61,394 nt of DNA from Candidatus Levyibacteriota bacterium. GTDB taxonomy: Bacteria; Patescibacteriota; Microgenomatia; Levybacterales; UBA12049. The stretch lies in NCBI GenBank assembly GCA_016217835.1, contig JACRFQ010000008.1:1-61394 (forward strand), given 5' to 3'. A program made the position numbers and the translations under genes. The notes below the pieces were generated by a model. It was given only the letters and a program-made list of their open reading frames with translations. It ran no database searches and was not told the DNA's origin. This document shows, one piece after another, positions 6,187 through 47,099 of this stretch (within the stretch, counting starts at the first letter, position 1; each line of letters starts with the position of its first letter).

Positions 6187-6554
6187 CATATCAATCTATT
6201 GTTGCCAATAGTATGGACTATATCATCTTCCCAATACGGGAAGGTCAGCATATAAAGAACGCTTATATTTTGAATTGCTTCAAGTACGTTTCTTTAGGAG
6301 CAACTATTGCCCACAAGTCTCTACGGGGTCAAATTAAGAAGACGATAGATGATGGAAAATAGAAAATAGATTCTTGAAAATAGAAAATGGAATTTTTTCT
6401 ACTATCCACTTTCTGCCTTCAAATTACTACCTTCTACCCTCTATCATCTACCGTCCAAAACTGACTTCCCTCGGTATTGTCCTAAACTTTAGGAGTTCAC
6501 CGATATTAGCTGACTTTTTCCTAAAAACTCTCATTCTTAGGCCGCCTAAATAAG
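6187..6554 (-). ncRNA. group I-like intron between U1406 and C1407 (decoding centre)
   Basis: 368-nt insert between GCCCGU and CAAGGC. Contains GUAGAGACUUGUGGGC (R-like), hairpin CUUCCC/GGGAAG, AUGAUAUAGUCC (S), hairpin CUAUUG-GCAA-CAAUAG and a terminal G. P1 is only 4 bp. Confidence 0.6.
6341..6455. repeat. MITE-like palindromic element, copy A (inside the 1406 intron)
   Basis: Termini GACGATAGATGATGG ... CTATCATCTACCGTC; purine-rich arm tagaaaatagaa and complementary arm. Same family as 14495-14620 and 45131-45256. Confidence 0.75.
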
Positions 6555-6864
6555 ACGGGCGGTGTGTACAAGACCCGAGAACGTATTCACCGCAGCATGC
6601 TGATCTGCGATTACTACCGATTCCGACTTCATGGGGTCAGGTTGCAGACCCCAATCTGAACTGAGGCGAAATTTAAGGGATTCGCTTGCACTTGCGTACT
6701 TGCAGCCCGTTGTTTTTCGCCATTGTAGTGTGTGTGTAGCCCAGGACATAAGGGCCGTGCTGACTTGACGTCTTCCGCTCCTTCCTTCCCTGGAAAATCC
6801 AGGGACCGTCTCTAATGAATATTCAACATTAGACGCGGGTTGCGCTCGTTTCCCCACTTAAGGG

Positions 6865-6908
<44 letters not shown>

Positions 6909-7016
6909 GTACCATCCTTGCGGATTTCTTCCAGTTTCTTGGAAAATGTACGGTATCATGTCAAGTCCTGGTGAGGTTTTTCGTTTTGTCTCGAATTGAA
7001 CCACACGCTCCACCGG

Positions 7017-7076
<60 letters not shown>

Positions 7077-7436
7077 TCTGCTTAACGCGTTAGCTTACGC
7101 CTCATCCGACAAGTCGGAAAAAGCTAGCAGACATCGTTTACGGCTAGGACTACACAGGTATCTAATCTGTTTCGCTCCCCTAGCTTTCGTGCCTCAGCGT
7201 CAGGAAAATCCCAGGTACCTGCCTTCGCCTTTGGTGTTCCAGTTAATATCAACGCATTTCACTGCTACATTAACTGTTCCGGTACCCCTGACAATCCTCA
7301 ACATTAAAAGTATCGTATCCAGTTCCAAGGGTAAGCCTTGGTATTTAAGATACGACTTTTTAATGAGCCTACGCACACTTTACGCCCAATGAATCCGGAT
7401 AACGCTTGCACCCTACGTATTACCGAGACTTCTGGC

Positions 7437-7699
7437 CCGGCCCGTTAAATAAAAAACTTAACTTACCGAACATGGACTATATCTTCACTCTTCTTACAGA
7501 GTGTTTCACGTGTAGTCTCTGAGGAGCCTCTGATTTAAAATCAAAGTTTCCTGCTGATTGTTTTGTAACCCTTATACTAGTCTCTAAGTTTTTTTGGGTT
7601 GGCTAGATATTGTTACTTTTAAAAAGTAATCTAGCATTTACAAAAGTTCCCAGCATATAGTGAAATTTATACTACGCGCCAAACCCAATTTAATGGGCC
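7437..7699 (-). ncRNA. group I intron at E. coli position U516/G517
   Basis: 263-nt insert between ...ACUACGU and GCCAGAAG.... IGS GCGUAGU pairs with the exon end (U.G at the junction). UUUGGC pairs with the 3' exon (P10). Also UCAGAGACUACACG, AAGAUAUAGUCC and a terminal G. Confidence 0.8.
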
Positions 7700-8281
7700 A
7701 CGTAGTTAGTAGGTGCTTATTCTATAGTCCGTGAAGGGACTATCAAAAGGAGTTTACAACCCGAAGGCCTTCATCCTCCACGCGGCGTCGCTGGATCAGA
7801 CTTTCGTCCATTGTCCAATATTCCCAGTTGCTGCCATCCGTAGATGTACTGCCCGTATCTCAGTGCAGTTGTGGCTGATCGACCTCTCAGTCCAGCTACC
7901 CGTCATCGCCTTGGTAGGCTTTTACCCCACCAACAAGCTGATAGGACGCAGGCTCATCTCTTGGCGGGCAGTTAAGCCCTTTATTCTTGCGAAACCATGG
8001 AATATTACCCCCTCTTTCGAGAGGCTATGTTCCACCTAGAGGTAGATTCCTACGCGTTACTCACCCGTCTGCCACTCTCGCGCAAAGCACGAGAAAGTCC
8101 AAAGTTTGTAAAGTTTTTAAAGTTATAAAGTTATTGACTTTATGAACTTTTTACTTTATGAACATTATGAACTCTCTTGTGCTTCGCACAAGCGTTCGAC
8201 TTGCATGCTTAAGGCACGCCGCCAGCGTTCATCCTGAACCAGGATCAAATTCTCAAAAAAATTTGACTTTGTCAAATTTTT

Positions 8282-8355
8282 GCAGTCCGCCGATAAAGTG
8301 CACTTTGAGCCGCGCTACGAATAGTAGGTAAGGCGAAAAGTAAACTTAGGCGGGC
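8282..8355. repeat. R-family nested-hairpin repeat, copy R1 (16S leader)
   Basis: GCAGTCCGCCGATAA...GAGCCGCGCTACGAATAGTAGGTAAGGCGAA...TAGGCGGGC; outer stem CCGCC/GGCGG. Confidence 0.7.
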
Positions 8356-8452
8356 AAAAAATCAACGCAGTCGTTGTTAGATTATCTTTAAGGAATTAAT
8401 CTAACAAAAATTCCTACCACTTTCTGATCGAGGAGCTTTGCTCCGAGATTAG

Positions 8453-8513
8453 TCCTCCAAAGAATTGCAGCATGAGTCACGTCAAACGTGATCGAATGCT
8501 AAAATCTGGAGGA
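8453..8513. repeat. R-family repeat, degenerate copy R2 (16S leader)
   Basis: Outer stem TCCTCC/GGAGGA. ATTGCAGCATGAG...CGAATGCTAAAAT frame is shared with copy R7, with a different interior. Confidence 0.5.
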
Positions 8514-8594
8514 TTGATCGAAACTACTCCTATCCAAAAAGTTTATCCTCACTTTAGAATGTGCTATTCAGTTTTTAAAGAGCAAAATGTATGA

Positions 8595-8665
8595 TCCTCC
8601 CCCAGTCTTACCGTTCGCCTTTTCAGTACTATTCGTACACGGCTCACGGAGCGACTTTTGGAGGA
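8595..8665. repeat. R-family repeat, copy R3 (16S leader, opposite orientation)
   Basis: TCCTCC...CCGTTCGCC-TTTTCAGTACTATTCGTACAC-GGCTCACGG...GGAGGA. Confidence 0.7.
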
Positions 8666-8695
8666 TAATGCGCTATTTTTAATTTACCAAAGAGC

Positions 8696-8719
8696 ATTAA
8701 AAATCCCGCCAAAGGCGGG
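8696..8719 (-). terminator. intrinsic terminator after the methyltransferase gene
   Basis: Minus strand reads CCCGCC-TTT-GGCGGG followed by ATTTTTAAT. Confidence 0.65.
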
Positions 8720-8814
8720 TTTACTTCCCAAAACTTTGGCAAAGACGTTTACATAGCAAAATCTATTATAGTCAATTTGAGGCGATTGTCAAGGCGGAAA
8801 AGTAGCTAATTTTA

Positions 8815-12660: not shown

Positions 12661-14919
12661 TTATCCTGTGGTTTTAACAAGATTTTCTTTTGGATTCTTG
12701 ATATCTTCAAGTTTCCAGGCAGCAAATGTGCAGGCGGGGTAATTACTGCAACCATAGAAACGGCGGCCTTTTTTAGTCTTTTTGAATATAATTCTTCCTC
12801 GCCCGCCATCGCTACGCTCAGGCGTTGCGGGCGGGGCTCCATTACCACATTTTGGACAAGGAATATTCGTATCTACTATAAATGGTTTTGTAAATTTGCA
12901 AGTTGGAAAATTTTCGCATGCCATAAATTTACCAAATCTTCCAATTCTTATTATTAAATGTCCTTTATCTTCCGAACAAATTTCATCTGTTTTTTCAACT
13001 TCTATTTTTACTCTTACTGCTTCTTTAACTTGACCCAAGGATTTCTCAAAAGGAGTATAAAAATCTTTAATTACCGGCACCCATTTTTTTGTTCCGTTTG
13101 CAATATCATCTAAACTCTCCTCCATTGCTGCTGTAAAAGGAATATCATCAATTGTTGAAAAATTCGTAACCAAAAAATCATTTACGGCAACGCCAACACT
13201 TGTCGGAAAAAACTTTCCTTCGTTTTTTTCTATATATTGCCTTGATTCAATTGTTGAAATAATCGTTGCATAAGTAGAAGGTCTTCCGATTCCTTTTTCT
13301 TCCAAAGTTTTAATTATCGAAGCGTCATTATATCTTGGCGGAGGAGGGGTTTCGTGAAATTCGCTTAAAACAGAAACAAAATCAAGTTTTTCATTTGCTA
13401 TAAACTCAGGCAATCTATTATCGTTTAGGGCAGCCGGATTTATTTTTAAAAATCCGTCAAATACTAATACGCTTCCGTTAGCCTTTAAACGATATTCGGA
13501 GTTTTGATTTTTGATTTTTGATTTTTGATTTTGAGAGTCCACAATTACAGATGTAGACTCGGTAACCGCATCTGCCATCTGTGTTGCCAGTGTCCTTGCC
13601 CAAATAACATCATAAAGTTTTCCGTATTGAATTCCCAGCTGATTGCTAACGACTGATGGCAAAACGCTAATCTTGGCAGGTCTTATTGCTTCGTGAGCTT
13701 CCTGAGCATTTTTTTGAGTTACTTTGTAGTATCTTGGCTTTGGAGGCAAATATTTGTCTCCAAATTCTTTTTTTACATAATCGCTCATCGAAACCCTTGC
13801 GCTTTCTGAAATTGCAGGTGAATCGGTTCTATGATAAGTAATATAACCTTCTTCATAGAGCTTTTGCGCCAAACCCATTGTTCTTCTTCCGGAAAGCCCC
13901 ATTCTTCTTGCGGCATCCTGCTGTAAAGTTGAAGTTGTATATGGCGGAGGCGGAGTTCTTTTTATTTCCTTTTTGATAACATCTAACACCATGAAATCTT
14001 TTGTTTTTAAATCCTCTTCAATTTGTTTTGCTTTTGCCTCTGTATCAATTAAAGTCTTTGCATAGTTATATTCCCCATCGTATAAATTAAGCTTTTGGGA
14101 AATTTCAATTTTTCCCGCCTGCAACGCTTGTGCTTGCACTGCGGGCAGGTTACCATCAATTTCAATAAGTTCGAAAGCTACTCCGTCGGATTTAAGATTT
14201 AAGATTTTAGATTTAAGATTTACACTTATTGTCCAATAATTTTCTTTTTTAAACTTTTCTATTTCTTTTTCCCGCTCGACAATCAAACGGAGCGCAACCG
14301 ATTGAACCCTTCCTGCTGATAATCCTCTTCTGATCTTTTGCCACAAAATAGGCGAAAGTTTGTAGCCGACCAAGCGGTCAAGAACCCTTCTTGCGGTTTG
14401 CGCGTCAACCAAATTCTGATCAACTTCTCTTGGATGCTTAAAAGCTTCTTCAATTGCTTCTTTTGTAATTTCATGAAAAACAATTCTAGAAATAGACGGT
14501 AGATGATGGATAGTAGAAGATGGATTTTTGAAGTTTGAAGTTAGAGGGTCGATTTTCTTTCGTTCTATTCTCAATTTTCTATCTTCAACTCCCACCTTCA
14601 ATCTTCTATCTTCTATTGTCAATATTTGCGCAACGTGCGAAGCGATTGCTTCCCCCTCTCTGTCTGGATCGGTTGCAAGAATTATATTATCAACACCTTT
14701 ACTTAAACTTTTAATTTCTGACAAAATCTTTTTTTTATCAGGCATCATCTGATAATTGGGTTTAAAATCATGCTCAAGATCAACCCCAAGTGTGCTTTTA
14801 GGCAAATCCATAACGTGCCCCATCGAAGCAATGATTTCGTAATCCTGCCCTAAAAATTTCCCGATTGTCTTTGCTTTTGTTGGCGACTCTACTATTACCA
14901 AGTACTTCATAATTTTCAC
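12661..14919 (-). CDS. topA: DNA topoisomerase I with repeat-derived in-frame insertions
   Basis: Toprim LVIVESPTKAKTI / DPDREGEAI, active-site region YITYHRTDS, C-terminal Cys4 zinc ribbons. Confidence 0.95.
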   Translation of the reverse strand: MKIMKYLVIVESPTKAKTIGKFLGQDYEIIASMGHVMDLPKSTLGVDLEHDFKPNYQMMPDKKKILSEIKSLSKGVDNIILATDPDREGEAIASHVAQILTIEDRRLKVGVEDRKLRIERKKIDPLTSNFKNPSSTIHHLPSISRIVFHEITKEAIEEAFKHPREVDQNLVDAQTARRVLDRLVGYKLSPILWQKIRRGLSAGRVQSVALRLIVEREKEIEKFKKENYWTISVNLKSKILNLKSDGVAFELIEIDGNLPAVQAQALQAGKIEISQKLNLYDGEYNYAKTLIDTEAKAKQIEEDLKTKDFMVLDVIKKEIKRTPPPPYTTSTLQQDAARRMGLSGRRTMGLAQKLYEEGYITYHRTDSPAISESARVSMSDYVKKEFGDKYLPPKPRYYKVTQKNAQEAHEAIRPAKISVLPSVVSNQLGIQYGKLYDVIWARTLATQMADAVTESTSVIVDSQNQKSKIKNQNSEYRLKANGSVLVFDGFLKINPAALNDNRLPEFIANEKLDFVSVLSEFHETPPPPRYNDASIIKTLEEKGIGRPSTYATIISTIESRQYIEKNEGKFFPTSVGVAVNDFLVTNFSTIDDIPFTAAMEESLDDIANGTKKWVPVIKDFYTPFEKSLGQVKEAVRVKIEVEKTDEICSEDKGHLIIRIGRFGKFMACENFPTCKFTKPFIVDTNIPCPKCGNGAPPATPERSDGGRGRIIFKKTKKGRRFYGCSNYPACTFAAWKLEDIKNPKENLVKTTG
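13501..13537. repeat. heptamer repeat (TTTTGAT)n inside topA
   Basis: gttttgatttttgatttttgatttttgattttgagag, translated NQKSKIKNQN. Near-identical to 17923-17959 in mrdA. Confidence 0.8.
14114..14150. repeat. GC-rich hairpin repeat, copy inside topA
   Basis: CCCGCCTGCAACGCTT-gtgcttgcac-TGCGGGCAGGT, translated LPAVQAQALQAG. Confidence 0.8.
14495..14620. repeat. MITE-like palindromic element, copy C, in frame inside topA
   Basis: 126 nt (42 codons), termini GACGGTAGATGATGG ... CTTCTATTGTC. Encodes TIEDRRLKVGVEDRKLRIERKKIDPLTSNFKNPSSTIHHLPS between the Toprim motif and FHEIT. Confidence 0.8.
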
Positions 14920-14923
14920 CTGT

Positions 14924-14990
14924 CCTGTTAAAATTGCTCCGTGAGCCGTGTACGAATAGTACTTAAAGGCGAACGGTAAAACTTAATAGG
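14924..14990. repeat. R-family repeat, copy R4 (immediately upstream of the topA start)
   Basis: CCTGTTAA...GAGCCGTGTACGAATAGTACTTAAAGGCGAACGG...TTAATAGG. Confidence 0.7.
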
Positions 14991-15026
14991 ATAAACTCTT
15001 TTTACTCTAAAGAAGTATACATGACC

Positions 15027-17559: not shown

Positions 17560-19329
17560 TTAGCGGGAAAACCACTCTTCCAAAATCTTTTTTGCAATTG
17601 GGGCGGCAATATTACTTCCTTCACCAGATTCTTCTGCTAAAACCGTGACGACAATTTCGGGATTATAAGCCGGCGCAAAAAGCGTAATCCAGGCATGAGG
17701 TTTAGTACTGATTCCACCATGTTCAGCAGTTCCTGTTTTACAAGCAATTACCACACGTCGATAATCCGCTGATGCAGAAGCAACAGGCAGTATATTCTTA
17801 TTATCAATTCTTAATTCTGAATTCTTAATTCTGAATTCGAATAACGGCCAGGCAACTCCACCGGGTTGACAGGCTTCTATCATTCCCTGTCTTATTAAAT
17901 CTGTTGAATGTTGATCTAATAAGTTTTGATTTTTGATTTTTGATTTTTGATTTTTGAGCAAATGAGGCACGTATAATGAGCCCTCATTTGCTATCGCCTG
18001 TGTCCAACCGTTAACCTGCAAAGGTGTGGTCAAAAGATAACCCTGCCCGATTCCATAATGATACGTATCTCCTAAATACCACTGCTCGCCAATTACACTC
18101 TGTTTCCAATTTCTGGTTGGCACTGTTCCCGATTCTTCTCCTTTTAAATCTATACCCAATTTTTTATCAAGACCAAATTTAAAAGCAGTATTAGAAATTT
18201 TATCAACGCCGATTTTTTCTGCTAATTTATAAAAGAAAATATCATTTGAGCGCTTTATTCCTTTAACAACATTTACATTTCCATCTTTTCCGCCGTAGCC
18301 CGTGTAATACCAGTTAGAAAAAGAAAATGCGCCAACATTTAAAACTCCTGTATCTTCAATTTCATAATTTTGGTCAATTATCTTATTCTCAAGTCCTGAT
18401 GCCGCAACAACTAATTTAAAAGTTGAGCCGGGCGGATAAACCCCAGCAATAGCTCTATTTAAAAGCGGCTGATTTTTTGAGTCTAATAAGATATCGCTTA
18501 AAGTTAAATAACTGCTACCTGTTGAAATTCTGTATGAGCTTTCCATCGTAAAAAGATTCGGATCAAACGAGGGTCTTGATAAAAACGCAAGGATTTCGCC
18601 TTTTGGGGTTGAAACAATTATCGCTCCTCTTGTAATATCTTTTGTCGCCTCATATGCTGCGTTTTGAAGTTTTGCGTCTAAAGTTACTTGGATATTCTTA
18701 CCTGAAATTGGATCCTCCTGTCCTAATTTTCTAATTAACTCCCCTTTTGCATTAACCTCATAAAGCTGCTTACCGTCTGTTCCTTTGAGCAATGCCTGAT
18801 ACTCCTGCTCAAGACCTGATTTTCCAATAATATCTCCGCCCTTATAAGATGAATATTCAGGAGATGCAAGTTCTTCTTTGGAAATTTGCCCTATGTAGCC
18901 TACAACATGAGAAAAACTTTCTTTATAAGGATATTGCCTTAAGCTATCCACCTCTAAACCCTTCTTACCTGCGGCAATCTTAGACAAAGCTTCTGTTTGC
19001 GTGAGTAAAACTGTTTTATTATTTATAATTTCTCTAAATCCGGGCACATTAAAAACTAAAGGAGTGCCAAATCTATCAAAAATAATTCCTCTTGGCGCAT
19101 GGATTACAACTGTCTTTGTTCTGTTGCTGTCGGAAAGATATCTATAATAGTATCCTTTGATAACTTGAAGTAAAAATAAACGCGAGGATAAAACCACAAA
19201 TAAAACTAAAAATGACAAGGGTAAAAGTAAATCCCTGCTGCTTGGTTTTTTTCCCTCGTAATCATATTCTTTTCTTCTGCTTGAATCTTTTAAAATATAG
19301 TCCGGGAATGCAACACCTGTTTTAGTCAT
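17560..19329 (-). CDS. mrdA: penicillin-binding protein 2 (elongation transpeptidase)
   Basis: STFK (PGSTFKLV), SND and KTGTAE motifs; adjacent to mreD/mreC. Confidence 0.9.
   Translation of the reverse strand: MTKTGVAFPDYILKDSSRRKEYDYEGKKPSSRDLLLPLSFLVLFVVLSSRLFLLQVIKGYYYRYLSDSNRTKTVVIHAPRGIIFDRFGTPLVFNVPGFREIINNKTVLLTQTEALSKIAAGKKGLEVDSLRQYPYKESFSHVVGYIGQISKEELASPEYSSYKGGDIIGKSGLEQEYQALLKGTDGKQLYEVNAKGELIRKLGQEDPISGKNIQVTLDAKLQNAAYEATKDITRGAIIVSTPKGEILAFLSRPSFDPNLFTMESSYRISTGSSYLTLSDILLDSKNQPLLNRAIAGVYPPGSTFKLVVAASGLENKIIDQNYEIEDTGVLNVGAFSFSNWYYTGYGGKDGNVNVVKGIKRSNDIFFYKLAEKIGVDKISNTAFKFGLDKKLGIDLKGEESGTVPTRNWKQSVIGEQWYLGDTYHYGIGQGYLLTTPLQVNGWTQAIANEGSLYVPHLLKNQKSKIKNQNLLDQHSTDLIRQGMIEACQPGGVAWPLFEFRIKNSELRIDNKNILPVASASADYRRVVIACKTGTAEHGGISTKPHAWITLFAPAYNPEIVVTVLAEESGEGSNIAAPIAKKILEEWFSR
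17923..17959. repeat. heptamer repeat (TTTTGAT)n inside mrdA
   Basis: gttttgatttttgatttttgatttttgatttttgagc, translated NQKSKIKNQN. Confidence 0.8.
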
Positions 19330-19337
19330 AGTGCGAT

Positions 19338-19480
19338 AATTTTAAATTTTAAATTCTTAATTTTTAATGAATGTTTCAATTCTTTAATTTTAAAATTGGG
19401 ACATTTGGATTTGACCCGCCTGCAACGCTTTGCATAGCAATGCGGGCAGGTTAGAAATTAAAAATTAGAAATTAGAAATT
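19338..19480. repeat. composite intergenic repeat (AT-rich arms around a GC hairpin)
   Basis: aattttaaattttaaatt...TTTGACCCGCCTGCAACGCTTtgcatagcaaTGCGGGCAGGTTAGAAATTaaaaattagaaattagaaatt. Homologous in reverse complement to 46960-47099. The right arm supplies the mreD C-terminus and stop. Confidence 0.8.
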
Positions 19481-22686: not shown

Positions 22687-22863
22687 AACTTAAAAATTTC
22701 TAATTCTTAATTTCTAATTTCTAATTAAATCTAAATATCTTAATTTAAAAATTGAAACATTGAAGCATTCATTAAAAATTGAGAATTGAAAATTAAAAAT
22801 TTCTCTATCATAATAGCATCTTGCACGAGTTTTTCCAATATGCTACGATAACTAAAATCCAAG

Positions 22864-27643: not shown

Positions 27644-27649
27644 AATAAA

Positions 27650-27745
27650 ACCTAATTTTCAATTTCTAATTTCTAATTTTCAGTGAATTTTCAATGTCTC
27701 AATGAGTCATTTATTGTAAATTGAAAACTGAAAATTAGAAATTGC
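27650..27745. repeat. AT-rich long-hairpin repeat (family with the CATTGAGACATTGAAAAT core)
   Basis: Reverse complement is near-identical over ~50 nt to 37513-37575. The arms ttctaatttctaattttcagt / actgaaaattagaaatt pair. Confidence 0.75.
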
Positions 27746-27749
27746 GAGC

Positions 27750-28680: not shown

Positions 28681-28932
28681 CTAACTAAGGGAATTTTTGA
28701 GCATACGGTGAAGTCTTTTCCATCCCGCTGTAGTTTTGAAATATTGTTCAGATTCAATTGCATCTTTTTTGTTTTTAAATCCCGAATAATATATTAATTC
28801 ATAGGGTATGTTTGGTTTCGTAGCTTTGTTTTCGCCTTTATTATGAGATTGGAATCTTGATTTTAAATCTGGCGTAGAACCTAAGTACAATTTTTGATTT
28901 TTCAGACTACGAAGAATATAGAAGTAATACAC
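28681..28932 (-). CDS. GIY-YIG nuclease-domain protein
   Basis: YYFYILRS...KLYLGSTPDLKSRFQSHN...Y..E (GIY-YIG/URI) in 83 aa. Confidence 0.75.
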   Translation of the reverse strand: MYYFYILRSLKNQKLYLGSTPDLKSRFQSHNKGENKATKPNIPYELIYYSGFKNKKDAIESEQYFKTTAGWKRLHRMLKNSLS

Positions 28933-29109: not shown

Positions 29110-29204
29110 TTATACTTGGAATGAATAAAGCAATCAATCGTGAAGACAAAAGAGGTTATTATTTAAGTTTTTCGTTTTCTTTGTGGTCGGTCCCACAAAT
29201 CTTG

Positions 29205-29243
29205 CTTCAAGTCTTTTCAGTACTATCCGTACACGACTTGAAG
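29205..29243. repeat. R-family repeat, truncated copy R5
   Basis: CTTCAAGTC-TTTTCAGTACTATCCGTACAC-GACTTGAAG. Confidence 0.6.
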
Positions 29244-29265
29244 AGCGATAAAGAGGGACGTCGCG

Positions 29266-36143: not shown

Positions 36144-36998
36144 ATGAATGACGATAACAAGAATCCAATCGTAGACAAGCAAGCAGATGAATCCACAGAT
36201 GATGTGGTAGCTAAACCTGTTTCCGAACCGATAGTTGAGCCTGAAACACCGGCTATTGAAGAAAAACCAGACCTGCCCGCATCAGCAAGCGAAGCGTTGC
36301 AGGCGGGAGAAATTGAGGCACCCCAAAAGCCAGAAGAAATCGAAGCGCCGGCTGAAGAAAAATTGATTGAAGCAGTTGAAGAGGACGGCAAGATTGAACC
36401 CTCCTCCGCTGAAGCTACGGAAGAGCAAGCCAAAGAACCTGTAGAAGAAACCCCTGCTCCATCCTTACCATCCGACAAGGGCAAATGGTATATTGTTCAC
36501 ACATATTCAGGCCATGAAAATAAAGTTGCAAAATCCCTTCACCAAAGAATGGAAAGTATGGGATTTGAAGACAGAATTTTTGAAATTATTGTTCCAACCA
36601 GAGACACTGTTAAGGTAACCGGCGGCAAAAAAGAAAATGTTAAAGAAAAAATCTTCCCGGGATATGTTTTAGTAAAAATGATTTTAGATGACGAGTCTTG
36701 GCTTTTAGTTAGAACAACTCAAGGTGTTACTGCATTTATCGGCGCCGGCAATAAACCAACTCCAATCTCTGACAAAGAAGTCGAAGTAATTCAAAAGTTT
36801 ATGGCAACCGAACAACCTTTATACAAAGCCGCATTTACAGTTGGTGAAGCTGTTAAAATTGTTGACGGACCATTTGCAGATTTCTTGGGATCAATTGACA
36901 GCATTGACGAAGCAAAGGGTAAATTAAAAGTATTGGTTTCTATCTTTGGCAGAGAAACTCCTGTAGAGCTTGATTTCCTACAGGTAACTAAATTGTAA
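36144..36998 (+). CDS. nusG: transcription antiterminator NusG with a ~110-aa acidic N-terminal extension
   Basis: KWYIVHTYSGHENKV (NGN), GEAVKIVDGPFADFLGSI (KOW). The extension is E/P/A-rich. Confidence 0.9.
   Translation: MNDDNKNPIVDKQADESTDDVVAKPVSEPIVEPETPAIEEKPDLPASASEALQAGEIEAPQKPEEIEAPAEEKLIEAVEEDGKIEPSSAEATEEQAKEPVEETPAPSLPSDKGKWYIVHTYSGHENKVAKSLHQRMESMGFEDRIFEIIVPTRDTVKVTGGKKENVKEKIFPGYVLVKMILDDESWLLVRTTQGVTAFIGAGNKPTPISDKEVEVIQKFMATEQPLYKAAFTVGEAVKIVDGPFADFLGSIDSIDEAKGKLKVLVSIFGRETPVELDFLQVTKL
36271..36307. repeat. GC-rich hairpin repeat, copy inside the nusG extension
   Basis: ACCTGCCCGC-atcagcaagcg-AAGCGTTGCAGGCGGG, translated LPASASEALQAG. Confidence 0.8.
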
Positions 36999-37505: not shown

Positions 37506-37509
37506 AGCT

Positions 37510-37603
37510 CACAATTTACAATTTTCAGTTTTCAATTTACAATAAATAATCATTGAGACATTGAAAATTTAATGAAAATTGAGAATTAGAAATTGAAAAT
37601 TAT
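37510..37603. repeat. AT-rich long-hairpin repeat (same family as 27650-27745)
   Basis: aattttcagttttcaatttacaataaataatcattgagacattgaaaattt... Confidence 0.75.
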
Positions 37604-37617
37604 TTAGGAGAAAAATT

Positions 37618-38418
37618 ATGGGTAAAATAAGAGTAAAAACCTTCGGAGACGAAGAGCAAGAATTAAAAGAAAAAGAAAAGCTTGAAGCCCGAAAGCAGGC
37701 TAAAAAAGCTGAAAAGCAAAGCGCAGAAACACAAACTCAGGAAGACTTTGTTGAGCCCGTAACTGAAGCCGTAGAGGAAAAAGCAGAAGCATCAAAAACA
37801 AAATCTTCTTACAGTCAAAAAGCAAAAAAGAAAGCACCTCATTCGAAAAATTATCAAAATCTTTTAACGCTTATCGACAGAGCAAAAACATATACTTTAG
37901 CAGAGGCTTTAGAGCTTTTGGAAAAACTTCAAAGAGGCAAACTCGACGAAACAGTTGAACTCCATTTGAATACGCTTACAGCAGGACTTTCAGGCAACAT
38001 CACTCTCCCCCACGGAACCGGCAAAAAAACAAAAGTCGCTATTGCAACAGATGCGTTAATTGCAGAGATTGAAAAAGGAATTATTAACTTTGATATTTTA
38101 GTTGCAGCTCCTGAAATGATGGCAAAACTTGCAAGAGTTGCAAAGGTTTTAGGACCAAAAGGCTTAATGCCAAATCCAAAAAACGGCACAATTGCCCAAA
38201 ACCCGCAAGATATCGCTAAAAAATATGAAGGCGGGCAGGTTAATTTTAAAACAGAAGCAAAAACACCGGTTATGCACTTAACTGTTGGAAAAATGTCTTT
38301 TGGCAAAGAAAAACTAACACAAAACATTGAGGCTTTAATAACGGCCGTTAAAAAATCAAACATCGTCAATATTACGCTTAAAAGTACGATGAGTCCGGGA
38401 ATCAAGATAAAAATCTAA
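37618..38418 (+). CDS. rplA: 50S ribosomal protein L1 with a K/E-rich N-terminal extension
   Basis: GTGKKTKVAIATD, LMPNPKNGT, C-terminal TMSPGIKIKI. Confidence 0.9.
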   Translation: MGKIRVKTFGDEEQELKEKEKLEARKQAKKAEKQSAETQTQEDFVEPVTEAVEEKAEASKTKSSYSQKAKKKAPHSKNYQNLLTLIDRAKTYTLAEALELLEKLQRGKLDETVELHLNTLTAGLSGNITLPHGTGKKTKVAIATDALIAEIEKGIINFDILVAAPEMMAKLARVAKVLGPKGLMPNPKNGTIAQNPQDIAKKYEGGQVNFKTEAKTPVMHLTVGKMSFGKEKLTQNIEALITAVKKSNIVNITLKSTMSPGIKIKI

Positions 38419-38507
38419 ATATGATTTAAATCTACAATGCTTGCCCCGTAAAATCGCCGTCGTGAGGCGAGGACGTAGACCCCGCGAACGAAAAGATTTT
38501 TATGGGG

Positions 38508-38534
38508 AGCCCCGGAATTAAAATAAAAATCTAA
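38508..38534 (+). pseudogene. short remnant copy of the rplA 3' end
   Basis: AGCCCCGGAATTAAAATAAAAATCTAA versus rplA AGTCCGGGAATCAAGATAAAAATCTAA. Confidence 0.55.
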
Positions 38535-38588: not shown

Positions 38589-40733
38589 ATGAATCAGATT
38601 ATTAAATCGTTCTCCTCAATGAGCATACTCACTAGGATATTTTTTCTTACTTCAATAATGATACTTATTATTGTACCCATTTTAATAAAACAGACTCAAA
38701 ACACAAGTCAATATGCCCAAGCTCTACCCTGCACTACCACTGTTAGTGGTTTTGACTTAACTTCAATAAACACTGCTAGAGATAAGGCTGGAACAGGAGG
38801 AGTAGTATGTTTTCCAGCAGGGACTTATTCGGGTAATTTAACTGCCTCTGTTATGGGACAAACTTGGCAGTTTGACTCAGGAGCAAAGCTAATAGGAACG
38901 ATCAATATTTCGTCTTCCGGTGTTAGCATAAGCGGAGGCACTATACAAAGCCAGACAACAGACAGATGGGCATATACTGTATCTTTTAATGCTGACGACT
39001 CGGTAATTAAAGGCGTCACTTTTATAGGAGGAGGACAAGTTATAGGCATTTTTGGCAAAGACAGGAATAAAATATCAAATAATACTTTTAATAGCCAAAT
39101 CGGAAGCGCTGTATCAATTTGGGGTCAAGGGGTAGGAGCGGATGATAATTTAATTGAAGGAAACACAATAATCCAAACCGCCACTTATAAAGTAAGTCCT
39201 ATTATGTCCAGAGGCTCGGAAAACGAAACTGTTTTTAACCAAAGGACTATCGTGAGGAGTAATATTATTGACCAAGGTCCGGGAGATATAGGATGGTTCG
39301 GTATTGAGTTTAAGGATAGCCCAAATTCTTTAATAGAAGGGAATACTATCAAGGGAGGAAGTGTTTTAGTAAGCTTCCCCGATTCTAATTATTGTAATGT
39401 TAAAAATAATACACTGGATCTTCGGGAATCACCTTATTGGGGTGTAGAAATAGCGAAAGCCAACAATTGCTCTGTTGTGGGCAATAATTTTATCGGAAAT
39501 AATAATACTACAGACGCCGCTGTGAGTATGAATACACAGCCTACGGGAGCATTTATAGACAGCAATAAAGCAAACGATATTTTTGTATTAACAGAGCTAA
39601 GCGGATCAGGACATACAATTACAAATAACTGCTTGACCAATGTAAAAAATGTAACTACTTATACAGCGACAACTACAACAATTACCGCAAATGGACCTTG
39701 CACCTCAACTACACCCACACCCACTCCTACGGTAGCTGTAACTTCAACACCTGTTCCTACTGGTACAGCGGTCACTTCAACCCCAACCCCTACGTTTACC
39801 CCTATCCCGACACCAATGCCTTCGCCCACACCTGTTCCTACAGCTACACCCACACCTATTTCTTCAACAACAACAAACAGTTTTGCCGGGAATTATTTCT
39901 GGAATACTATATTATCGGGGTCTCCATATTACAAAACAGTTGAGGCATATCCTTTAAGTAAAAACTGGGGCACAGGAAGTCCCGGAGGAGGACTACCCAC
40001 CGATAACTGGTCTGTTAATTTTACCGGTGTTTTCTACTTTTCATCAGGAAGCTATCAGTTTACAGCGTCATCCGATGACGGAGTTAGAATATATTTGGAT
40101 GGGAAAGTTATAATAGATGCCTGGATTCCGCAAGCTTTAACAACTTACCAAAATACAGTTCCTGTCACAACAGGAAACCATGAGGTTAAAGTAGAATATT
40201 TTGAAGCAGGCGGTAATGCTACGCTAAATTTAAGTTGGAAACAAGTTTCACCTACACCAACATCAACTGTTCCATCTCCTACGCCAACCGGTATTCCTGT
40301 GGGCTTTGGTGATGGACTAATTGGATCGTATTTCCCTCAAATTAATTTATCAGGAACACCTATACCAAGAAAGGATTCTGTTGTTAATTTCGATTGGGGA
40401 TTTGGATCACCCATGTCAGGATTTCCAAATGATAATTTTTCAGTCCGCTGGACAGGATATGTAATTCCAAAAACTTCCGAAAACTATACATTTTATATTA
40501 GGTCAGACGACGGAGTAAGAATGTGGGTAAATAATATATTAGTAATAAATAAATGGAAAGACCATGCAATTAAAGAAGACAACGGATCAATATTTCTTAA
40601 TGCAAACCAAAAGTATCCAATTACCGTAGAATATTATGAACATTTTTCACTAGCTTCCATAAAAATGGCTTGGTCATCAGCTTCTGTTATTAAATCAATA
40701 ATTCCCCAAAGCCAGCTTTACACAAGTAAATAA
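38589..40733 (+). CDS. secreted beta-helix protein with two PA14 domains and T/P-rich linkers
   Basis: Signal/TM segment, repeated GNTI/NNTF beta-helix turns, TPTPTP linkers, two PA14-like blocks (DNWSVNFTG...SDDGVRIYLDG; DNFSVRWTG...SDDGVRMWVNN). Confidence 0.8.
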   Translation: MNQIIKSFSSMSILTRIFFLTSIMILIIVPILIKQTQNTSQYAQALPCTTTVSGFDLTSINTARDKAGTGGVVCFPAGTYSGNLTASVMGQTWQFDSGAKLIGTINISSSGVSISGGTIQSQTTDRWAYTVSFNADDSVIKGVTFIGGGQVIGIFGKDRNKISNNTFNSQIGSAVSIWGQGVGADDNLIEGNTIIQTATYKVSPIMSRGSENETVFNQRTIVRSNIIDQGPGDIGWFGIEFKDSPNSLIEGNTIKGGSVLVSFPDSNYCNVKNNTLDLRESPYWGVEIAKANNCSVVGNNFIGNNNTTDAAVSMNTQPTGAFIDSNKANDIFVLTELSGSGHTITNNCLTNVKNVTTYTATTTTITANGPCTSTTPTPTPTVAVTSTPVPTGTAVTSTPTPTFTPIPTPMPSPTPVPTATPTPISSTTTNSFAGNYFWNTILSGSPYYKTVEAYPLSKNWGTGSPGGGLPTDNWSVNFTGVFYFSSGSYQFTASSDDGVRIYLDGKVIIDAWIPQALTTYQNTVPVTTGNHEVKVEYFEAGGNATLNLSWKQVSPTPTSTVPSPTPTGIPVGFGDGLIGSYFPQINLSGTPIPRKDSVVNFDWGFGSPMSGFPNDNFSVRWTGYVIPKTSENYTFYIRSDDGVRMWVNNILVINKWKDHAIKEDNGSIFLNANQKYPITVEYYEHFSLASIKMAWSSASVIKSIIPQSQLYTSK

Positions 40734-40756
40734 AAATATTTGAAAATATGAATACC

Positions 40757-40840
40757 ATGATTTCCGCAATTAAAAAAGCAAACATTGTCAACGCCACCCT
40801 CAAAAGTACGATGAGTCCGGGAATTAAGATAAAAATCTAA
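40757..40840 (+). pseudogene. displaced fragment of an rplA 3' end (27 codons plus stop)
   Basis: MISAIKKANIVNATLKSTMSPGIKIKI* versus rplA ...ITAVKKSNIVNITLKSTMSPGIKIKI*. The last ~44 nt differ at 2 positions. Confidence 0.75.
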
Positions 40841-40856
40841 ATCTGCCTTAATAAAT

Positions 40857-44586: not shown

Positions 44587-45132
44587 ATGTCAGACGAAAA
44601 TACAAAAATATCAGCTAACAGGCAAAAGAAAATAGAAATAGTTGCAAAGCTTAATGAAAAAATAGCTAAAGCTAAGGCTATTGTTTTTACAAATTATCAA
44701 GGATTAACCCACAAACAACTCGAAGGACTTAAAAAAACCATTAAACCATTAAGCGCCGAATATGTTGTTGCTAAAAACTCCCTCGTTTTAAGAGCATTGG
44801 AAGAAAACAAAATAAAAGTGCAGGATCAAAAGCAATTCGAGGGCCCAACCGGAACACTTTTAATTTATGAAGATTTTGTCGGTCCTTTAAAAGAATTGGC
44901 AAAACTCGTTAAAGAATTAGGTATTCCAAGCGTTAAATTCGGAGTGATGGAAAGCAAAAACCTAACAGGAGAGCAAATTATGAAGCTTTCTACCCTTCCA
45001 ACAAGAGAAACTTTGCTTACTCAAATTGCAGTCGGACTCAAATCCCCTCTTTTTGGTCTTCATAGAGCACTAAATTGGAATTTGCAAAAATTGGTAATTA
45101 CATTGAAAGCAGTAGAAACGAAAAAACATTGA
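44587..45132 (+). CDS. rplJ: 50S ribosomal protein L10
   Basis: Size, position upstream of rplL, AIVFTNYQGLTHKQLEGLKK. Confidence 0.9.
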   Translation: MSDENTKISANRQKKIEIVAKLNEKIAKAKAIVFTNYQGLTHKQLEGLKKTIKPLSAEYVVAKNSLVLRALEENKIKVQDQKQFEGPTGTLLIYEDFVGPLKELAKLVKELGIPSVKFGVMESKNLTGEQIMKLSTLPTRETLLTQIAVGLKSPLFGLHRALNWNLQKLVITLKAVETKKH

Positions 45133-45256
45133 CAATAGATGATAGAAAATAGAAAGTAGATCTTTGGAGGTAGAAGTTAGAAAATAGATTAAAAACTTCC
45201 ATCCTCCATCTTCAATCTTCAAGACACTACCTTCTATCTTCTATACTTCTATCGTC
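45131..45256. repeat. MITE-like palindromic element, copy B, filling the rplJ-rplL spacer
   Basis: 126 nt, GACAATAGATGATAGAAAATAGAAAG ... CTATCTTCTATACTTCTATCGTC. The left end overlaps the rplJ TGA. Confidence 0.8.
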
Positions 45257-45672: not shown

Positions 45673-45747
45673 GCAGTCCGCCGATAATCGCACCGCGAGT
45701 CGTGTATGAATAATACTGAAAAGACGAGCGGCAAGATAAGGCGGGCG
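45673..45747. repeat. R-family repeat, copy R6
   Basis: GCAGTCCGCCGATAA...GCGAGTCGTGTATGAATAATACTGAAAAGACGAGCGG...TAAGGCGGGC. Confidence 0.7.
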
Positions 45748-45841: not shown

Positions 45842-45912
45842 GACCCCACTTATTTTAGCATTCGCCTTACCTACTATCCGTAGCGCGGCTCATGCTGCAA
45901 TACTAGAGAGGT
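45842..45912. repeat. R-family repeat, copy R7
   Basis: ...TTAGCATTCGCCTTACCTACTATCCGTAGCGCGGCTCATGCTGCAA... Confidence 0.65.
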
Positions 45913-45916
45913 CTGC

Positions 45917-46019: not shown

Positions 46020-46226
46020 ATGAATCAAACACTATCAATCAATAACCTACCTGATCTTTTAACTGTTAAGGAAGTTGCTCAAATTTTAAGAGTCTCCCCT
46101 CTTACAATCAAACGCTGGGGCAAAAGAGGCAAACTTCCGGCCATTAGAATCAACTCCCGGGGCGACAGAAGATATAAAAAGGAAGCAGTCCTCTGGCTTT
46201 TAGGCATCCAGCAAAAAGAAGAGTAA
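46020..46226 (+). CDS. excisionase/MerR-superfamily helix-turn-helix protein
   Basis: LLTVKEVAQILRVSPLTIKRWGKRGKLPAIR. Confidence 0.7.
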   Translation: MNQTLSINNLPDLLTVKEVAQILRVSPLTIKRWGKRGKLPAIRINSRGDRRYKKEAVLWLLGIQQKEE

Positions 46227-46887: not shown

Positions 46888-46959
46888 TGTAAAACATAAT
46901 AATTCGCATCTAAATAATTGTCAATACGCTGATTTTGATGTAGAGTAAATATAGAGATT

Positions 46960-47099
46960 AAATTTCTAATTCTTAATTTCTAATTTCTAACCTGCCCGCA
47001 GATGCTACGCATCAAGCGTTGCAGGCGGGTCAAATTTAAATGTTTAAAACATTAAAAATTAAAAATTCACTGAAAATTGAAAATTTAAAATTTAAAATT
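46960..47099. repeat. composite intergenic repeat (reverse-complement homolog of 19338-19480)
   Basis: ...ttctaACCTGCCCGCagatgctacgcatcAAGCGTTGCAGGCGGGTCAAAtttaaatg...aaatttaaaatttaaaatt. Overlaps the annotated start of the 929-aa ORF. Confidence 0.8.

Follow-up and report, generated by a model that had tools for sequence, protein, structure and literature searches.

A family of structure-conserved palindromes recurs at gene boundaries in Patescibacteria genomes

Introduction

Genomes of the Patescibacteria, or candidate phyla radiation (CPR), are tiny and streamlined and are thought to hold few repeats. Here we describe the R-element, a palindrome of ~70 nt found in a contig of Candidatus Levyibacteriota bacterium (assembly GCA_016217835.1, contig JACRFQ010000008.1; the 61,394 nucleotides analysed are called the window below), where a first-pass annotation made from the letters alone had reported it as a hairpin repeat. 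The repeat is real but is not specific to this genome: the R-element is a previously undescribed family of structure-conserved, insertion-prone palindromes located at gene boundaries in at least ~100 Patescibacteria genomes. We favour, with a probability of about 0.5, the reading that it is a non-coding imperfect palindrome resembling repetitive extragenic palindromes (REPs) and miniature inverted-repeat transposable elements (MITEs), that is, a mobile hairpin which is recognised as a folded single strand, has been copied to gene-boundary sites and has secondarily been co-opted in transcripts. We infer that the recognised strand is more likely DNA than RNA.

Results

A common fold with exchangeable parts

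A covariance model (CM) was built from the aligned seven copies of the first-pass annotation, and every position of the window was scored with it. Seven strong matches (45.5-85.6 bits) and one weak match (15.4 bits) stood out from noise, so that all seven reported copies were recovered, two of them with corrected coordinates, and an eighth, degenerate copy at 38443-38506 was added. Compared with dinucleotide shuffles of itself, each window copy folds better in its native form (z -3.2 to -6.5), and the RNAalifold consensus of the seven copies has double-sided changes in 12 of 18 predicted pairs.

On the strand that reads GAGCCG...GGCGAA, which is used here for the anatomy, all window copies share one rod fold. 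The variable outer stem, P1 (5-10 bp, often of the form CCNCC/GGNGG), is followed by an A-rich bulge on the 5' side and by P2, a stem of 3-4 bp. P2 leads through a 2x2 internal loop (5'-GC, 3'-AA) to P3 (4-5 bp), and P3 leads through a tandem GA/GA mismatch to three pairs, GCC/GGC or GUC/GAC. Above a junction that reads GYG on the 5' side and (Y)UGAAAA or GGUAA on the 3' side stands an apical hairpin with a UAC/GUA-type stem and a G-R-A-U-A pentaloop of the GNR(N)A type. The outer stems had been described as differing completely between copies while always pairing; they do pair, but they are not wholly unrelated, since nearly all begin with G(U/A/C)CC and GUCCGCC is common to two copies. Upstream of the 5' end the profile of the copies shows only a weak (C)GCA. 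The conserved bases (GC/AA, GA/GA, CGYG, the G-R-A-U-A loop and AAG) are unpaired and lie on one strand, while the paired bases covary freely, an arrangement that gives no support to the symmetric protein-binding site suggested earlier.

Some parts of the rod can be exchanged. The copy at 8452-8514, annotated earlier as 8453-8513, is a true plus-strand member that retains the lower stems and loops, but its apical hairpin has been swapped for the unrelated GUCACGUCAAACGUGAU; the apical part is likewise exchanged at 38443 and in three copies from other genomes (L027:774, L090:1631 and L087:6789, where L numbers denote loci outside the window). The GA/GA loop is replaced by pairs at 29190 and at L012:3744. 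For the former copy, the extent 29205-29243 given previously is too short: the full-length element spans 29190-29259 and has the outer stem GTCCC/GGGAC, and CAAGTC/GACTTG, which had been taken for the outer stem, is its middle stem, in which pairs have replaced the G.A mismatches. The most constant feature of the R-element is its lower loops.

Covariation among copies from many genomes

The distribution of the R-element was determined by exact match to a 48-bit degenerate core pattern in one genome per GTDB species. At least 118 contigs match, from at least ~101 assemblies (counted by accession prefix), and most belong to Microgenomates. The assembly labels among the matches listed include Levy-, Gottesman-, Curtiss-, Davies-, Woese-, Roizman-, Ames-, Collier- and Blackburnbacteria, Paceibacterota, Saccharibacteria and 'Patescibacteria group'. 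Many matching third-party annotation (TPA) metagenome-assembled genomes are labelled 'uncultured Gammaproteobacteria'; because their gene content is like that of the window (L061 is an example), this label looks like a placeholder.

The CM found 111 further copies in L001-L100 and another 18 in L101-L118. Among the 111 aligned copies, standard pairing occurs in 99.0% of cells, as against 82.4% in shuffles, and 12 of the 13 modelled pairs have double-sided changes. Cells with a double-sided change number 231 (49.6 in shuffles), and one-sided cells of the G.U type only 12, so wobble is nearly excluded from the stems. The covariation score is 0.467, against 0.147 in shuffles; none of 500 shuffles reached it, and slid controls did not exceed 0.054. 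The search pattern partly fixed the core loops in this set, and P1, P2, P3 and the GC/AA loop were left free by it. The stems are thus kept by strict Watson-Crick covariation, and the selection on structure proposed in the first-pass annotation from seven copies is confirmed far more strongly when many more are added.

The closest relative of every window copy is a copy in another genome (0.74-0.92 identity) and not a sibling in the window (0.68-0.80), so the family is old and not the product of a recent burst in this genome. A tandem pair of R copies is present in one locus (L026:860-931 and 979-1050), with a 119-nt period and 47-nt spacers that are nearly identical.

The first-pass annotation had not recognised the repeat as a known motif. 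An Rfam 15 scan of the window at gathering cutoffs returned only the 16S rRNA and tRNAs, with no family matching the R-element, and a permissive Rfam scan of 8200-8800 yielded nothing relevant up to E 10. The copies are not fragments of a larger mobile element. Literature searches for the element sequence, and for reports of REPs, MITEs or structured RNAs in the CPR, found nothing relevant.

Resident sites and their turnover

Several sites are occupied in the same orientation in different genera. Copies lie upstream of topA in the window and in L081, and after rplL in the window, L053 and L117; the copy beside the 16S 5' end (8285-8355) recurs in L110 at the same position and in the same orientation. 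Other shared sites are the start of galU (L038, L082), the start of pth (L037, L088, L098), and the regions after rpmG (window, L099) and after a MerR-type helix-turn-helix (HTH) gene (L061, L017). At the topA site the copies of the window and L081 are 92% identical, compared with 70% for topA coding DNA, and the other flank cannot be aligned. Because copies occupying the same site in different genomes (at pth and galU, for example) are distinguished by compensatory substitutions in three stems, namely P1, P2 and the apical one, the fold and loops are under selection in resident copies.

Sites are also gained or lost. In the interval between rplL and the HTH gene, the window has two copies, L053 and L117 have one each, and there is none in L061, L107 and six more Levybacteria loci (L120, L122, L126, L128, L129 and L130). 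The 45843-45913 copy is absent from the corresponding site in related loci; L061 and L017 carry a copy after the HTH gene, and the window has none there. Over the whole rplL-HTH region, two, one or no copies are therefore found at three different sites, depending on the genome. Similarly, a copy occupies the galU site of L038 and L082, and L050 and the window have none there. L12 identity among the rplL-HTH loci is 45-75% (45% for L117, 66-75% for the others).

The HTH protein itself (46020-46226, plus strand, 68 aa, MerR/excisionase type) has 6612 homologues, and the best 120 of them exceed 90% identity, which is unusual for a small regulator. We rejected this identity as a sign of close kinship between loci, since the protein is more than 90% identical in thousands of contigs.

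Duplicated gene termini beside the hairpin

When the two flanks of each copy were compared with each other, scores of at least 10 were obtained for ~20 of 110 copies and for 8 of 600 mismatched controls; at the protein level, flank similarity exceeded the 99th percentile of the controls in 17 of 110 copies (~15%). The duplicates are of variable length, 20-48 nt, and their layout in element orientation is invariable: an intact gene terminus (A), a spacer of 6-58 nt, the hairpin, and an extra copy of the terminus (A') placed against the 3' base of the hairpin, 0-8 nt after its last base.

In one group the duplicated terminus is a gene start on the other strand, as at pth, galU, mreB, L052 and a gene that appears PHP-like from its N-terminal sequence. 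At pth, galU and the PHP-like gene, A' opens 1-2 nt ahead of the ATG with a -10 box immediately upstream, and for this reason it looks like the original leaderless start. The real gene comes after the reverse-complemented hairpin and a spacer bearing a Shine-Dalgarno (SD) sequence (TTAATTCGGAGGnTTT-ATG at galU), and an upstream open reading frame (ORF) that starts in A' continues across the hairpin and terminates at the real ATG or shortly past it. In the other group A and A' both end at a stop codon: rpmG (window and L099), the HTH gene (L061 and L017), L063, and rplA (window). No open frame crosses the hairpin in these gene-end cases.

The window holds two examples of the second kind. Behind the copy at 29190-29259, positions 29159-29189 (minus strand) repeat the C-terminal coding end and stop of rpmG (HKENEKLK*), abutting the 3' base of the hairpin and translating in frame, and the same arrangement is found in L099. 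Behind the R-like element at 38443-38506 (plus strand), a 28-nt duplicate of the rplA 3' end (38507-38534, plus strand; real copy at 38391-38418) abuts the 3' base. The rplA end is present three times in all (38310-38429, 38507-38534 and 40732-40851), its third copy being a stretch of ~100 nt (40732-40840) after a PA14-domain gene. These copies bracket the R-like element and the PA14-domain gene (38589-40733, with its own TTGACA promoter), and the arrangement looks like nested insertions.

The duplicates differ in age: the one in L038 is identical at 40 of 40 positions, and drift in others amounts to 15-40%. Of the codons that differ between A and A', 62 are synonymous and 18 non-synonymous, where a non-synonymous share of about a third would be expected if only the real copy were constrained. 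The excess of synonymous change over that of a neutral A' is modest and suggestive, not decisive, and strong selection on a peptide encoded by the duplicated ends was rejected because of this ratio and because the gene-end duplicates have no open frame through the hairpin.

Genomic context and orientation

The copies are intergenic and lie near gene ends in both orientations. In a count of ORFs no shorter than 80 aa and no farther than 100 nt from each copy, a sense gene start followed the 3' end of 19 copies, a gene on the other strand started away from the 5' end of 33, a sense gene ended before the 5' end of 24, and a convergent gene ended after the 3' end of 32. These placements (43 sense and 65 antisense) do not favour the sense orientation; neighbouring mRNAs, if anything, contain the reverse complement more often than the sense strand. 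Many copies are only 2-12 nt from an SD sequence and ATG (for example at topA in the window and L081), so the mRNA must carry the reverse complement there. The flanking genes are a housekeeping mix that includes aminoacyl-tRNA synthetases, pth, hisG, galU-type nucleoside triphosphate transferases, nusG, ribosomal proteins, YbeY, radA, dnaA, rho and mreB. Conservation of the loops is equal across all context classes, with the qualification that the core loops were partly fixed by the search pattern.

The gene contexts reported earlier are borne out, with three copies in the 16S leader, one in the topA 5' region and two downstream of rplL. In the 16S leader, the copies at 8285-8355 (plus strand; 75.2 bits; fold -31.2 kcal/mol, z -4.8; 25 nt upstream of the 16S 5' end) and 8452-8514 (plus strand; 45.5 bits; fold z -6.5) are antisense to the leader transcript and the copy at 8596-8666 (minus strand; 84.5 bits) is sense, so that both orientations indeed occur within one leader. 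All three lie between the 16S 5' end and a perfect promoter at 8765-8792 (minus strand; TTGACA-16-TATAAT, 12/12 matches in a promoter scan). This consensus sigma-70 promoter, given here for context and not as part of the element, most likely drives the leader. The topA copy (14922-14991, plus strand; 76.3 bits) has its 5' end 11 nt from the start codon of topA on the opposite strand (topA being a Pfam assignment); it abuts the SD sequence and start of this gene, and its reverse complement runs directly into AGGTGAAAATT-ATG. The copy at 29190-29259 (minus strand; 69.0 bits) is situated immediately 3' of a small ORF, rpmG (L33) by its sequence, with tRNA-Thr farther upstream and tRNA-Trp downstream. 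The degenerate or variant element at 38443-38506 (E 0.03) comes just after rplA. Finally, the copy at 45676-45746 (plus strand; 85.6 bits) begins 12 nt past the rplL stop in the sense orientation, and that at 45843-45913 (minus strand; 75.0 bits) lies between rplL and the MerR-type HTH gene, convergent with the first.

Of 117 hairpins, 6 are followed by a T-run on the sense side and 2 on the antisense side, compared with 5.7% of random positions, and an intrinsic terminator was rejected because T-runs are enriched on neither strand. Of 110 copies, 28 have a TANNNT hexamer 5-9 nt ahead of the 5' end, versus ~13 on the other strand; as this is only ~25% of copies, a promoter proper to every element was rejected. 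In the leaders of hisG (L032:5985-6330, minus strand; also L067, L045, L025 and L048) a shared layout consists of a small hairpin, a sense R copy, a terminator-like hairpin (CCUCUCGUUCC...GGAACGGGAGG-U6) and hisG.

Four apparent RNA features of the flanks were dismissed. 'CACCTCC' flanks resembling the 16S 3' end are the reverse complement of the SD sequence and ATG of divergent genes. The motif GAGTTTAGTGTTTCTTAA, taken at first for a 23S 5' end, occurs in loci that have no large-subunit rRNA and is one arm of another AT-rich palindrome adjoining the SD sequence of a divergent gene. An R-element within a tRNA or tmRNA of L056 was discarded when ARAGORN and Rfam found neither there. A T-box-like string upstream of hisG in L032 was not confirmed, as there was no T-box match up to E 0.1; there is none in the window either.

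A copy within RNase P RNA

A single copy, L065:5346-5416, forms the P3 hairpin of RNase P RNA in the sense orientation. RF00010 aligns end to end in L065 (E 1.6e-5), and the R-element is an insert in the P3 loop, after P2 and just before the conserved region I (CR-I) sequence GAGGAAAGUCC. The RF00010 score of 24 bits is below the gathering cutoff. CPR RNase P RNAs are reported to have sub-threshold scores and large helix extensions (PMC8172020), and both the low score and the large P3 extension of L065 fit that report. The extension differs, however, from those described there, among which no shared repeat is mentioned, in belonging to a dispersed family that is mostly found outside RNA genes.

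Further repeats and features of the window

The 16S gene (6506-8260, minus strand) of this low-GC (~35%), Patescibacteria-type window, which also has six tRNAs, spans 1755 nt, compared with a model of 1533 nt, and has an AT-rich insertion of ~220 nt near its 5' end (about 8095-8190). No 23S gene is linked to it, and tRNA-Cys and tRNA-Ile come after it, in the same order as in L056. Its promoter is ~500 nt upstream of the gene, and the leader also holds two sites with a hairpin plus a T-run (8705-8719 and 8363-8376, minus strand).

Two more hairpin families were observed. A palindrome of ~120 nt (GACGATAGATGATGGAAAATAGAAAATAGA...TCTATCATCTACCGTC) occurs just 3' of the 16S gene (6341-6458), inside the topA frame (14495-14623) and at the end of rplJ (45110-45244). 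Its topA copy occupies approximately aa 99-141, between the Toprim and Topoisom_bac domains, and may be an in-frame insertion; the topA product of L081 is ~75 aa shorter. A third family (CCCGCCTGCAACGCTT...GCGGGCAGGT; 14095-14152, 19396-19453, 36271-36330 and about 46985-47000) often adjoins AT-rich heptamer arrays. Short AT-rich arrays, both tandem and inverted, with the units (TTTTGAT)n and (AATTTCT)n, occupy many intergenic regions (13497-13531, 17919-17953, 22693-22802, 27645-27749, 37507-37603, 46951-47117 and others). In other genomes a long palindrome, CTTAGAAACACTTAACGAG..CGAGTTTAGTGTTTCTTAG, stands between R copies and the SD sequences of divergent genes.

Discussion

The first-pass annotation held that the repeat fitted a REP-like DNA or single-stranded DNA element as well as an RNA. 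This view is supported by the wider sample, in which the DNA or mobile side has gained weight. The near-absence of G.U pairs, the lack of an orientation preference and the lack of T-runs argue against a simple cis-acting RNA or a terminator, and the insertion footprints and turnover of sites favour DNA, or else a function needed on both strands. As a mobile hairpin, the R-element would be recognised as a folded single strand by a conserved trans-acting factor, this strand more likely being DNA (a hairpin or cruciform arm exposed during replication or transcription) than RNA. By copying or recombination the factor would place the element at new sites, the termini of transcribed or coding regions, and DNA synthesis or joining at the 3' end of the hairpin would re-copy the adjacent 20-48 nt of gene terminus. 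A resident copy would be tolerated where the hairpin is harmless and might in part be co-opted, as a 5' leader bringing an SD sequence to formerly leaderless genes, as a hairpin in a 3' untranslated region, or as an extension of helix P3 in RNase P RNA. Its fold and loops would be kept intact either by selection or by continuing activity of the partner.

Several observations weigh against this reading. The duplications do not abut the 5' side of the element and vary in length, and thus are not classical target-site duplications; moreover, 85% of copies have no duplication, and a neutral remnant accounts only partly for the synonymous excess in those that do. No R-element matches were found in viral contigs, which also led us to reject a phage origin. 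The partner looked for nearby did not appear: a tblastn search of all loci and the window (~0.86 Mb) with an IS200 TnpA query, a weak test, gave no E value below 0.7 and hence no sign of the REP-associated tyrosine transposase (RAYT) or IS200-like partner that the first-pass annotation had proposed to look for. Among the best 25 of 159 families matched by 150 flanking ORFs there was no transposase, reverse transcriptase or integrase, reverse transcriptases not having been specifically searched for. The conserved loops are purine-rich on one strand (tandem G.A, the GNR(N)A-type loop, A-rich bulges), as is typical of RNA tertiary or protein-binding motifs, and on the sense strand G.U exceeds A.C by 56:31 overall (~2:1). 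Lastly, a core common to the superphylum and retention at orthologous sites are unlike ordinary REPs and MITEs and fit an RNA that benefits the host.

Two kinds of gene near R copies deserve mention. A stand-alone GIY-YIG gene (28681-28932, minus strand, 83 aa), located beside tRNA-Trp and ~260 nt from the 29190 copy, was rejected as a partner: homologues are near only 3 of ~100 other loci (L002, L019 and L024), 0.65-2.6 kb from the R copies, and are not enriched near copies. Proteins of PF05635 ('23S rRNA intervening sequence protein', an Avd-like four-helix bundle) account for 3 of the 150 flanking ORFs near R copies (for example L055:2939-3298), and one is also found beside the HTH gene in L130 (1115-1462).

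The main rival of the mobile-hairpin reading is an RNA-level module, which we consider possible but doubtful. The R-element would then be a host-encoded structured RNA acting in the sense orientation as a handle for protein binding, or for processing or stability, in stable RNAs and in the leaders and trailers of translation-related genes, with a promoter of its own where it is antisense; it would be inherited vertically and occasionally duplicated. Strand-asymmetric, purine-rich loops combined with strong covariation are what such a module predicts, as are the sense orientation of the copy in RNase P RNA, the strong conservation at orthologous sites and the bias of G.U over A.C. It would also draw on the upstream TANNNT hexamers and on neighbours enriched for aminoacyl-tRNA synthetases, pth, YbeY, NusG, ribosomal proteins and hisG. 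Against it, the promoter-like hexamer precedes only about a quarter of copies, there is no sense bias, and the reverse complement must be present in many mRNAs whose SD sequence and ATG are 2-12 nt away. A near-absence of G.U pairs is unusual for selected RNA helices. In addition, the RNA module leaves the flanking duplications and the turnover of sites unexplained.

A more far-reaching form of mobility seems to us rather unlikely, though it has a real chance. The R-element would in that case represent a new kind of mobile element, a ~70-nt hairpin conserved throughout the superphylum, served by a conserved enzyme (host or selfish) through a single-stranded intermediate, RNA or DNA, and inserted precisely at stop codons and where transcription of leaderless genes starts. 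The re-copying of the terminus would be primed by its 3' end, gene starts would be rewired from leaderless to SD-led with an upstream ORF, and copies would be domesticated in stable RNAs such as RNase P RNA.

We regard it as improbable that the R-element is simply a transcript hairpin that works in either orientation, either as an RNase III-type processing site or as a block to exonucleases, shaping mRNA and rRNA ends in the manner of REP or intervening-sequence (IVS) hairpins. Copies are found in classic RNase III contexts, namely the 16S leader, the stretch beyond rplL and the secE-nusG/rplKA region; the outer stem has the same polarity in both orientations (C-rich 5', G-rich 3'), and strict Watson-Crick pairing would allow both transcripts to fold. 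A generic function of double-stranded RNA, however, offers no explanation for invariant unpaired bases that are conserved on one strand across phyla, nor for apical parts that are exchanged while the lower loops stay.

Two further alternatives carry very little credence. A scaffold for a guide or antisense RNA, in which the hairpin and a complementary 3' tail would repress the neighbouring gene, agrees with the gene-start cases, where the 20-45 nt 3' of the sense hairpin are the reverse complement of the first codons of the neighbour (perfectly over 40 nt in L038), but tails at gene ends (rpmG, the HTH gene, rplA, L063) run in the direction of the mRNA, such a tail is missing from most copies, drift in the older ones amounts to 15-40% and no gene for an effector was seen. 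A ligand- or tRNA-sensing leader (riboswitch or T-box-like) acting through the SD-like GGAGG in the 3' strand of the outer stem is suggested by sense copies 5-35 nt upstream of thrS, pheS, ilvB, leuA, hisG and an aminotransferase gene and by the terminator-like hairpin in hisG leaders, but it is contradicted by the more than half of copies with no downstream sense gene, by copies after stop codons, within RNase P RNA and antisense in the 16S leader, and by the failure to find an Rfam match or confirm a T-box.

As a mobile hairpin, the R-element has its nearest parallel in REPs and the bacterial interspersed mosaic elements (BIMEs) built from them, which are served by RAYTs (IS200-like Y1 HUH enzymes, forming REPtrons), whose genes usually have REPs on their flanks. 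Both are short, extragenic imperfect palindromes present in many copies, in both orientations and at gene ends; the presumed form in which both are recognised is folded single-stranded DNA, and resident copies of both affect transcripts. Unlike REPs, the R-element has no GTAG head, its 5' ends reading G(U/A/C)CC. It has roughly double the length of a REP, comprises four helices as well as conserved internal loops, and goes with duplicated gene termini; the weak test described above showed no RAYT near its copies. REPs are specific to a species or genus, whereas the R-element core recurs in several candidate phyla, in ~100 species-level genomes. MITE-type repeats (Correia/CREE, ERIC, RUP, BOX and Rickettsia palindromic elements) are likewise small, non-autonomous, hairpin-folding and transcribed with their neighbours; they can bring promoters or sequences like ribosome-binding sites, and they leave filled and empty sites between relatives. 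MITEs keep terminal inverted repeats, however, while the terminal stem of the R-element covaries freely, its loops are conserved and no parent insertion sequence was seen. The target duplication of MITEs is short and fixed, in contrast to R-element duplications of 20-48 nt that vary in length and abut the 3' side only, lying 6-58 nt from the 5' end.

Fungal mitochondria harbour double-hairpin elements and mobile GC clusters, which are small mobile hairpins in intergenic DNA and in the variable loops of structural RNAs, and free-standing homing endonuclease genes can adjoin a displaced gene terminus whose differences are mainly synonymous. The R-element resembles these in its occurrence both in intergenic DNA and in a structural RNA, and in being an insert beside such a displaced terminus, but the genetic system is another one and no endonuclease is linked to it. 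The attC sites of integrons are imperfect palindromes of similar size in which structure matters more than stem sequence and unpaired bases serve as marks, and they are recombined as folded single-stranded DNA at the 3' end. They differ in that the R''/R' boxes (RYYYAAC/GTTRRRY) are not general in the R-element, a CCTAA...TTAGG foot being found in some copies and not in most, and in that R copies are scattered at housekeeping genes, with no cassette arrays in the 8-kb loci. No intI was seen in the sampled flanks, where it was not specifically searched for. The duplicates are shorter than the typical template repeats (TRs) of diversity-generating retroelements, in which the template and variable repeats differ at adenines and a reverse transcriptase and Avd are close by.

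If the R-element is mobile, it would represent an undescribed insertion mechanism tied to the ends of transcripts and coding sequences, and a route by which leaderless genes acquire an SD-bearing leader. If it is an RNA module, an RNA-binding factor would act on rRNA leaders, ribosomal-protein operons and RNase P across the superphylum. In either case the R-element provides a ready covariance model for genome annotation and a marker of rearrangements at gene boundaries, and it accounts for some of the 'diverged' RNase P RNAs of the CPR. Despite the streamlining of these genomes, one structured element is common to ~100 species-level genomes and is found beside core genes of translation, replication and transcription.

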